Positions 49,362-49,800 of a stretch of 64,000 nucleotides of DNA are shown piece by piece. Numbering within the stretch: position 1 is the first letter of the stretch; every line of letters begins with the position of its first letter. The position numbers and the translations under genes are program-made. The notes below the pieces were generated by a model, which saw only the letters and a program-made list of their open reading frames with translations, was not told the DNA's origin and did not search any database. This DNA is from an uncultured Candidatus Saccharibacteria bacterium (GTDB lineage Bacteria; Patescibacteriota; Doudnabacteria; UBA920), in the NCBI GenBank assembly GCA_964521955.1, contig CAZFTX010000003.1, positions 1,517 through 65,516 of the forward strand, written 5' to 3'.

Positions 49362-49429
49362 CGGGATGTCGCCCCAGCACCACAATCTGCAATTGGGTGC
49401 GGGGTAAATATACCGGTAGCCTTGCCCCC
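49362..49429 (+). repeat. Partial tRNA-Pro 5'-end duplicate (nt 1-10 and the D-loop) interrupted by a 38-nt GC-rich hairpin
   Basis: cgggatgtcg (identical to the first 10 nt of tRNA-Pro), then ccccagcacc...ggtgcgggg hairpin, then ataccggtag (identical to the tRNA D-loop segment). It does not continue into a full cloverleaf. Confidence 0.5.
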
Positions 49430-49538
49430 GCCTAAAATAAGTCAAAATTAAGGTATTATATTGAATTATATGCTAAAATGTTCGAACGACTAGCCAACCA
49501 TTAGTATATTAGTAATTATTCGTAATTAGTAAAATCAT

Positions 49539-49612
49539 CGGGATGTCGTATACCGGTAGTACGCTTGCTTTGGGAGCAAGTTGACTGGGTTCGATTCCCA
49601 GCATCCCGACCA
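49539..49612 (+). tRNA. tRNA-Pro (anticodon UGG)
   Basis: Hand-folded cloverleaf: acceptor cgggatg/catcccg, D-arm, anticodon stem cttgc/gcaag with loop tttggga (TGG), T-arm ctggg-ttcgatt-cccag, encoded CCA, followed by a terminator hairpin. Confidence 0.8.
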
Positions 49613-49614
49613 AG

Positions 49615-49650
49615 AAAAACCATTAGCCTTTAGGTTGATGGTTTTTCTTG
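49615..49650 (+). terminator. Intrinsic terminator after tRNA-Pro
   Basis: aaaaaccattagcctttaggttgatggtttttcttg: stem followed by a T-run. Confidence 0.6.
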
Positions 49651-49745
49651 TTGAAGGATGCCCAGGGAACCGAAGGGTGGCGAGAAAAGAGCGACTATTT
49701 GGAGCTCTTGAGTGTAGCACCCCGGCTCCGAGTCGGAGCGAGGAG

Positions 49746-49765
49746 GATTCCCAGCATCCCGACCA
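49746..49765 (+). repeat. 20-bp exact duplicate of the tRNA-Pro 3' end (T-loop half through CCA): att-like remnant
   Basis: gattcccagcatcccgacca is identical to tRNA positions 49593-49612. It lies 133 bp downstream of the intact tRNA, and the intervening segment is GC-rich. Confidence 0.7.
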
Positions 49766-49800
49766 AAAATACCCTTCAATAATTATTGAAGGGTATTTTT
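49766..49800. terminator. Bidirectional terminator (palindromic stem aaaataccc...gggtatttt)
   Basis: aaaaatacccttcaataattattgaagggtattttt; the A-run/T-run symmetry lets it serve the transaldolase gene on the minus strand as well. Confidence 0.6.

Follow-up and report, generated by a model that had tools for sequence, protein, structure and literature searches.

A tRNA-Pro(UGG) gene as a probable integration hot spot with a gene-less element relic in a Saccharibacteria-like bacterium

Remnants of foreign DNA flanked by attachment (att) sites are a well-known kind of feature at tRNA and transfer-messenger RNA (tmRNA) genes. The case described here is the gene for tRNA-Pro(UGG) in a 64-kb stretch of DNA (the window, 64,000 nucleotides) from a Saccharibacteria-like bacterium of the Candidate Phyla Radiation (CPR). 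The locus is probably an integration hot spot, with positions 49613-49765 as the gene-less relic of an element. It is noteworthy for the host group and for the reduction of the flanked DNA to 133 bp.

Several described systems resemble the locus. The islands at ssrA in Dehalococcoides, which involve the serine recombinase DsiB, are marked by a 20-bp repeat of the gene's 3' end and by a crossover in the mid T-loop (McMurdie et al. 2011; PMC3146451). The recombinase gene lies beside attL on the reverse strand. The islands form tandem arrays and include integrase-less members, which were read as cis-mobilizable or fixed remnants (PMC3146451). The tRNA-Pro locus has the 20-bp 3'-end repeat, the start position in the T-loop and the stacking of modules behind the gene in common with them. 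A reverse-strand serine recombinase next to attL is present at three related CPR loci (L023, L031 and L033). Unlike in Dehalococcoides, the target is a tRNA-Pro instead of the tmRNA gene, the relic has 133 bp and no genes, and the host is a CPR bacterium. Further differences are the lack of a detected recombinase in the lineage of the window and an additional duplication of the 5' end with a second promoter.

In tycheposons and tRNA-flanked genomic islands of Prochlorococcus, one end holds a full tRNA and the opposite end a partial one, and successive integrations push older elements outwards. Degenerated remnants, scattered partial tRNAs and presence/absence heterogeneity have been described; a minority of the elements encodes large serine recombinases (Hackl et al.; 10.1101/2020.12.28.424599). 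Full and partial tRNA ends, stacked decaying remnants and presence/absence variation are also found at the tRNA-Pro locus. Tycheposons are multi-kb elements with replication and cargo modules, whereas the window holds a scar only, and the related CPR element on contig L023 comprises ~3.3 kb with one cargo gene.

Cis-mobilizable elements (CIMEs) are stretches of DNA between att repeats at the 3' end of tRNA or other genes that lack genes for recombination and transfer. They are regarded as deletion derivatives of integrative elements, and their loss or movement is put down to recombination between the att sites. The 133 bp in the window are likewise flanked by att-like repeats and free of recombination and transfer genes. 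The term is used for sites of integrative and conjugative or mobilizable elements (ICE/IME) in streptococci (PMC5704250) and also in PMC3146451. Described CIMEs measure kilobases and bear genes, and trans-mobilization was shown for some; the segment in the window is gene-less and has 133 bp. Islands of tyrosine integrases, P4-like elements and HPI among them, reportedly occupy conserved sublocations at tRNA 3' ends, as Williams is said to have laid out in Nucleic Acids Research in 2002. The direct-repeat anatomy and a conserved tRNA sublocation are common to these islands and the locus. A tyrosine integrase was found neither in the window nor at related loci.

The repeat-bounded unit and its variation among strains

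ARAGORN identified tRNA-Pro(UGG) as the single tRNA gene within the window (Table 1). The last 20 nt, GATTCCCAGCATCCCGACCA, occur there in two exact copies. A search of the 64 kb allowing up to three mismatches revealed no further matches, at 0.01 expected by chance, and two matches were reached in 0 of 100 shuffles. Within the T-loop, a canonical tRNA sublocation, the first base of the repeat is the G of TTC|GATTC. The repeat lengthens to 29 nt at 90% identity once the A-rich tails are counted. A preceding reading of the letters, without database searches (the sequence-only reading), had already located the intact tRNA gene, the exact duplicate of its 3' end and a palindromic terminator behind the second copy. 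ARAGORN and Rfam agree on the gene, the duplicate exceeds chance, and the palindrome is perfect. It is a bidirectional terminator (Term2) serving both the tRNA locus and the convergent transaldolase gene.

Table 1. Features of the tRNA-Pro(UGG) locus (window positions).
Feature	Position	Strand	Description
Promoter P1	49316-49344	+	TTGTCA, 17 nt, TAAAAT, extended -10 TG; 10/12 matches with TG (promoter scan)
5' fragment, part 1	49361-49371	+	TCGGGATGTCG; exact 11-nt copy of 49538-49548, the preceding base and tRNA nt 1-10
GC-rich hairpin, 37 nt	49372-49408	+	CCCCAGCACC...GGTGCGGGGTAAA; GC 0.57; between tRNA nt 10 and 11 of the fragment
5' fragment, part 2	49409-49419	+	TATACCGGTAG; exact 11-nt copy of 49549-49559, tRNA nt 11-21 (D-arm)
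AT-rich spacer, 119 nt	49420-49538	+	second, diverged promoter/leader copy and TTAGTA-repeat block
Intact tRNA-Pro(UGG)	49539-49612	+	ARAGORN; Rfam RF00005, 59 bits
attL-side repeat	49593-49612	+	inside tRNA-Pro, mid T-loop to CCA
Term1, terminator-like hairpin	49611-49650	+	19-nt arms, 89% complementary; first part of the 153-bp unit
Indel unit, 153 bp	49613-49765	+	Term1, 95 nt of GC-rich DNA, 20-nt tRNA-end copy
GC-rich gene-less filler	49651-49745	+	GC 0.59, foreign composition
attR-side repeat	49746-49765	+	exact copy of tRNA nt 55-74
Term2, perfect 19+19-nt palindrome	49764-49801		repeat scan and fold; after the second 20-mer copy
Transaldolase gene	49831-50685	-	Pfam TAL_FSA, E = 2.9e-50; conserved flank

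The transaldolase gene served as anchor and query for fetching comparative loci, and its 90%-identity cluster provided contigs of six close strains. Four originate from JGI samples and are 98.5-99.4% identical to the window (L019, L020, L021 and L022); two are from SRA assemblies and 92-97% identical (L017 and L018). The window layout recurs in L019, L020 and L021. An assembly artefact is excluded, since the same arrangement is present in four independent assemblies of close relatives (L018-L021). In L022, whose flanks are 99% identical, Term2 directly follows the tRNA gene. Exactly one 153-bp repeat unit is missing, Term1 and the GC-rich block included, so that the strain shows an attB-like empty site. 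A derived single-nucleotide polymorphism (SNP), A at 49957 in the transaldolase gene, is common to L022 and the unit-bearing L019, and the unit occurs in both strain clades. The absence is therefore most simply explained by a secondary loss, precise and via recombination between the 20-nt repeats.

L017 and L018 contain the unit of the window, with one substitution in the attR-side repeat of L017. Within a few bases after the second 20-mer, an insert of ~1.9-2 kb (GC ~0.50-0.56) begins. It comprises its own terminator right after the repeat and two open reading frames (ORFs) of 101 and 355 aa, and is followed by two further decayed copies of the tRNA-Pro 3' end (T-arm/acceptor), TTGGGAACTTTCCCAGTTCACCCCAAAA and GGCATCCCGTATAAAA. 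Both breakpoints of presence and absence, the loss in L022 and the start of the insert in L017/L018, lie exactly at the repeats. The comparison across genomes thus bears out two proposals of the sequence-only reading. The 133-bp segment behaves as a relic in that it is bounded by attL- and attR-like repeats and lost as exactly one unit, and repeated integration and deletion are reflected in this loss and in the ~2-kb insert with its decayed tRNA ends.

The proteins of the insert had no Pfam or PHROG family, no tblastn match in phage and plasmid collections and no relatives in viral contigs. An AlphaFold model of the 355-aa protein from six sequences reached a mean pLDDT of 47. A tRNA-like minihelix follows the 101-aa ORF (L018 4553-4597, plus strand; L017 ~8682-8726). 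In the L018 copy, an acceptor-like stem of 9 bp and a T-like stem of 5 bp are combined with the loop UUCGACU and a CCA end (z = -4.5). Such a minihelix might serve as the element's own attP dyad or as an RNA end that mimics a tRNA.

The 133 nt between the repeats (49613-49745) consist of an AT-rich hairpin and 95-96 nt with a GC content of 0.59, compared with a window mean of 0.37. Term1 folds into a 16-bp stem with a U-rich tail. The spacing of 133 bp had been given in the sequence-only reading, with a GC-rich segment of that length; the spacing holds, while only 95 nt are GC-rich and the Term1 part is AT-rich (GC 0.35). Two frames of 61 and 88 aa touch the 133 bp and cross the tRNA gene and the terminator; neither is a plausible gene. 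The filler opens with an inverted partial copy of tRNA nt 52-70 (49656-49674, GGATGCCCAGGGAACCGAA), which reads GGATGCCCAGGGAA(C/T)CGAA and is slightly altered relative to the tRNA. The majority allele aligns with a score of 22, which 3 of 1000 dinucleotide shuffles attain, and the window allele with 17 (33 of 1000). The filler together with the 20-mer folds strongly (-48.3 kcal/mol, z = -3.98) because it begins with this inverted copy.

The filler varies between strains. A C/T difference is located at 49671, with T as majority allele, and multi-base alleles at 49723-49730 and the equivalent positions of L017-L021 read CCGG--CTCC or TTAGGCTTAC. The latter is commoner and disrupts the inner hairpin without compensation (L017, L019-L021). 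Both alleles are present in both strain clades. One of them completes a palindrome with the downstream TCGGAGC, as a template-switch (quasi-palindrome) mutation would give. An invariant segment that folds as a conserved structured RNA, the contrary outcome named in advance, was not what the comparison revealed: the segment varies, has a hairpin-breaking allele, is dispensable and belongs to no Rfam family.

Searches for the origin of the filler gave little. Rfam at E values up to 10 reported the tRNA only. Exact-pattern scans of viral contigs with the tRNA 20-mer and a filler 20-mer had no match, and the filler 20-mer hit one metagenome contig by chance (L030, unrelated and of high GC content). 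BLAST of the filler against all 30 fetched loci retrieved sister strains only, and no donor was found within the window. A remnant of a recombinase gene was considered and rejected: tblastn of the L023 recombinase, described below, against 49200-49900 and against the L018 insert returned noise without a real match.

The displaced gene start and its promoters

The block 49294-49369, which includes P1, is orthologous to the promoter directly 5' of tRNA-Pro in the syntenic Saccharibacteria contig L006 (78% over 77 nt), so that P1 is taken as the ancestral promoter. Behind it lie exact 11-mers of the tRNA 5' end and D-arm, as the sequence-only reading had noticed. It had placed them around a 38-nt GC hairpin insertion, at a locus of repeated integration and deletion. 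The fragment and the hairpin are real; the hairpin has 37 nt, and the fragment is not stray. It sits at the ancestral start, for the distance from P1 to the fragment equals that from the P1 orthologue to the tRNA start in L006. Judged by this promoter and this distance, the gene would once have begun at the fragment, until a second, diverged promoter with a 5' end was inserted or duplicated and displaced this start. The intact tRNA-Pro begins 177 bp beyond it. A lineage-specific C9 is carried by both the fragment and the intact gene.

The spacer between fragment and gene is colinear with the P1 region. Its -10 block AATTATATGCTAAAAT (49464-49479) is 94% identical over 16 nt to 49329-49344. The alignment as a whole is not significant, with its score reached by 95 of 500 shuffles, and the spacer is more diverged from P1 than the L006 orthologue. 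A recent tandem duplication was rejected on these grounds. An old neutral duplication fits less well than an element-borne promoter with a tRNA 5' end, given a diverged promoter beside a perfect tRNA copy. The 5' event was independent of the 3' unit, because L022 keeps the 5' arrangement without the unit. No terminator was predicted between the two promoters, so the gene is probably transcribed from both of these predicted promoters. Folding of the 5' fragment region gave no significant structure (z = -0.97).

The 37-nt hairpin represents a small insertion in its own right. It is unchanged in L019-L022, and a hairpin scan of the window detected no relative. L006 holds, at a non-homologous position outside tRNA genes, an 85-nt element that shares the hairpin's arms (ACCCCGCACCAAAA...TTTTGGTGCGGGGTAAAT) and its 3' TAAAT. 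The Saccharibacteria contig L002 has its tRNA-Pro between two copies of a GC-rich hairpin, CTGGAAGAGGGGACACCTCTTCCAG (5868-5895 and 6040-6066); small GC-rich palindromes beside tRNA genes may be common in this group.

A TTAGTA-repeat block of 36 nt (49503-49537, plus strand) abuts the 5' end of tRNA-Pro. Such blocks (36-40 nt, e.g. ATTAGTATATTAGTAATTATTCGTAATTAGTAAAAT) recur at 42009-42044 on the minus strand and in the Doudnabacteria contig L005 (3514-3553). The former precedes an HlyD-like gene and keeps the orientation that the tRNA-abutting block has towards the gene downstream. The block may be an operator or promoter element.

Recombinases at related loci and the origin of the scar

A Pfam scan covered the 52 non-shadow ORFs of at least 110 aa in the window; five shadow ORFs overlapping longer annotated genes were left out. 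Phage_integrase, Resolvase and Recombinase domains were absent from all 52. The lack of a recombinase gene agrees with a relic and does not fit an active element. Five homologues of the 355-aa ORF from the L017/L018 insert were found in a collection of 5.8 billion proteins. In the CPR contigs L023, L024 and L025, a homologue with 75-78% identity lies beside a large serine recombinase, a protein of 468-473 aa with Resolvase, Recombinase and Zn_ribbon_recom domains. The end of the recombinase ORF falls, in antisense orientation, within tRNA-Ala(CGC). In all three contigs, nt 1-18 of this tRNA recur exactly 72 nt upstream of the tRNA gene. The far side is bounded in L023 and L025 by a 17/20 copy of tRNA nt 55-74; L024 ends before this point. 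The copy starts at the same T-loop GATTC as the repeat in the window. Among the three contigs only L023 spans both ends. Read in tRNA orientation, it has the nt 1-18 copy, the 72-nt spacer, the intact tRNA-Ala, the recombinase, a 354-aa gene as the one cargo gene, tRNA-end fragments and the 17/20 copy, the whole element covering ~3.3 kb.

Further features were observed on L023. An inverted repeat, CCCTGTCACTTAAT(AA)TCTT and AAGATTAAGTGACAGGG at ~8130-8150 and ~11170-11190, brackets the element. One arm adjoins the 5' side of the intact tRNA-Ala, and the other directly follows a 3'-end fragment of another tRNA-Ala. Several different tRNA 3'-end fragments are piled up at the distal side. Elsewhere on the contig (14481-14970) and also in L024, a tRNA-like 5' portion whose anticodon arm differs stands ahead of a tRNA-Ala(GGC). 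A 95-aa GIY-YIG endonuclease ORF runs into this intact tRNA, and a partial copy of the variant tRNA, from D-stem to T-arm, follows 75 nt downstream. The arrangement looks like tRNA gene turnover associated with a homing endonuclease.

Homologues of the recombinase with 47-61% identity end antisense inside tRNA-Ala(UGC) in L031 and tRNA-Glu(UUC) in L033. No tRNA was detected beside a third homologue, on L032, and no relatives of the clade were found in viral contigs. A recombinase gene beside attL that reads into the tRNA is thus a feature of L023-L025, L031 and L033, and not of the window lineage. It thus appears that tRNA genes serve this CPR clade of large serine recombinases as attachment sites. 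The tyrosine integrase of the sequence-only reading found no support: no Phage_integrase domain occurs in the window or in L017-L029, and the recombinase linked to the cargo gene is a large serine recombinase. For the scar, a tRNA-abutting enzyme of this CPR type is tentatively favoured over a tyrosine integrase, because of the homology of the cargo gene in the neighbouring module and the identical start of the repeats.

The locus is most plausibly explained by repeated use of tRNA-Pro as attachment site for site-specific integrative elements. The unit 49613-49765 would be the remainder of one element or of a short stack of elements, bounded by an attL-like repeat in the tRNA and an attR-like repeat, and would thus represent a scar similar to a CIME. 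Its repeats would still be recombinogenic and the unit dispensable, as its loss from one sister strain suggests. The recombinase itself is not encoded nearby. The present gene start and the second promoter would stem from an event of their own on the 5' side, whether a 5'-reconstituting integration or a local duplication. Several points weigh against this explanation. Neither the 64-kb window nor any contig of the lineage revealed a recombinase gene, and the link to the serine recombinase runs only via the neighbouring 2-kb module of L017/L018 and the analogy of layout. At its far end, that module is without a clean third repeat. Nor is the nested layout constant in the recombinase clade, as L031 and L033 show neither a 5' fragment nor a detectable distal repeat in the DNA examined. 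The empty allele is known from one metagenome contig, and replication slippage without a recombinase would also explain a precise loss of 153 bp between direct repeats of 20-29 nt. The 95-nt filler has no match beyond the sister strains that would tie it to a larger element; its GC contrast (0.59 vs 0.37) is, at this length, weak evidence alone.

Slippage is part of a purely local explanation, in which slippage or unequal crossing-over duplicated the tRNA ends and filler was captured during repair, all without a recombinase or a mobile element. The 5' side indeed resembles a tandem duplication of promoter and tRNA nt 1-21, with a colinear spacer, the conserved -10 block and C9 in both fragment and gene, and the loss of exactly one unit in L022 is the product expected from slippage between direct repeats. 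The GC-rich filler is without a donor elsewhere in the window, however, and sister strains carry a 2-kb foreign insert with decayed tRNA-end copies at the same site. The start of the repeat matches the T-loop position at the recombinase-associated tRNA-Ala locus. A second promoter more diverged from P1 than the L006 orthologue, beside 22 identical nt of tRNA, also fits an old neutral duplication poorly. A local origin is accordingly held to be unlikely. The textbook signature of tyrosine-integrase elements is an intact tRNA with a displaced copy of its 3' end, and this is the layout of the window. A P4- or lambda-type island at the tRNA 3' end, later collapsed by deletion, would produce it. 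Tyrosine recombinases are used by 910 of the 937 tRNA-targeting elements in the tycheposon study of Prochlorococcus (10.1101/2020.12.28.424599). Neither the window nor the related loci inspected encode a Phage_integrase domain, and the only cargo-linked, tRNA-abutting recombinase in the CPR contigs is of the large serine type, which leaves such an island quite improbable.

A functional tRNA-like RNA formed by the filler and the 20-mer is the least probable explanation and would come as a surprise. The 5' end of the segment pairs with the tRNA-end copy into an acceptor/T-arm minihelix (GGAUGC...GGGAAUC with GGAUUCCC.GCAUCC) with an ACCA end, which could serve as a substrate for processing or CCA addition or as a decoy. 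The strong fold, a closing helix made perfect by the majority T at 49671, an inverted tRNA-end copy rarely matched by shuffles (3 of 1000) and the clear minihelix in the L018 insert (UUCGACU loop, CCA) are in accordance with such an RNA. The segment is, however, precisely missing from L022 in an otherwise 99% identical locus, the commonest allele breaks the inner hairpin uncompensated, and Rfam has no match even at E = 10. Term1 stands upstream, and no promoter is predicted inside the unit. Inverted and direct copies of the tRNA end fit two half-sites of a dyad-symmetric recombination site equally well, and a tRNA-like minihelix RNA would look alike. The reading at the DNA level is favoured because the unit is dispensable, the inner hairpin is not maintained, and the unit is located behind a terminator without its own promoter.

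A more far-reaching proposal, speculative and rather doubtful, extends the integrative explanation. CPR bacteria, Saccharibacteria among them, would host an undescribed family of minimal elements (~3 kb) with one large serine recombinase and one conserved 355-aa protein. The naturally palindromic T-arm of tRNA genes would serve as attB, with crossover at TTC|GATTC, and the inverted (49656-49674) and direct (49746-49765) copies in the window would be the P and B' half-sites. A single mechanism replacing both the start and the end of a tRNA would account for the nested order of 5' fragment, promoter-bearing spacer, intact tRNA, element and 3' fragment that recurs at tRNA-Pro and at tRNA-Ala of L023.

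CPR genomes are tiny and streamlined, and their mobile elements are poorly catalogued. The locus documents gain and loss of foreign DNA at a CPR tRNA gene on the level of strains. Beyond this, it draws attention to a CPR clade of large serine recombinases that abut tRNA genes, at tRNA-Ala and tRNA-Glu and, by inference, tRNA-Pro. Should this clade have its short palindromic attB in the T-arm of tRNA genes, a compact recombinase/att pair would be at hand as a possible tool, and the entry of GC-rich foreign DNA into AT-rich CPR genomes would have an explanation. Consequences for the window are modest in practice: it has an intact tRNA and a dispensable scar.

Host, synteny and neighbouring sequences

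The closest genome matches are metagenome-assembled genomes (MAGs) of Saccharibacteria and Patescibacteria, with 57-65% identity for the transaldolase. This makes the host a CPR bacterium of which few relatives have been sequenced. By Pfam domains, one flank encodes transaldolase, a LOG-family protein, DUF2090, GlpX and transketolase, and the opposite flank Wzy_C/TPR proteins. L006 has the order 1157-aa-protein homologue, promoter, tRNA-Pro, terminator and convergent transaldolase; duplicated tRNA pieces adjoining its tRNA-Pro were not found. The ORF for the 1157-aa protein (45295-48768) differs in GC content, which is higher, and in skew. It was considered as a tRNA-integrated island and ruled out, being conserved and syntenic in L006.

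Homologues of the 2-kb-element proteins or further tRNA-end fragments were not found elsewhere in the window. Three ORFs without Pfam domain (14067-14768; 32948-33790 and 36279-36929, both on the plus strand) form local GC peaks of 0.43-0.48, against 0.33-0.36 around them. They are located within a polysaccharide-synthesis gene cluster, partly on the minority strand, and resemble none of the 2-kb-element proteins. Foreign insertion is a possible origin for them.

A perfect consensus promoter (TTGACA, 17 nt, TATAAT) at 49294-49322 on the minus strand stands back-to-back with the tRNA promoter and faces away from it. The leader of ~190 nt (49100-49290) toward the 75-aa and 1157-aa ORFs contains blocks kept in L006, L001 and L002 (GACGGGCTTTT..TGTTACAAA..AAAAAGCCAGGAA) and has no match in Rfam. 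A segment of ~497 bp between glpX and the transketolase gene (53532-54028) is missing in the 96.5%-identical L017 and in L001 and represents another small strain-specific insertion. It harbors an ORF on the minus strand (53572-53928) for a 118-aa four-helix-bundle protein of the 23S_rRNA_IVP/bAvd-like type.

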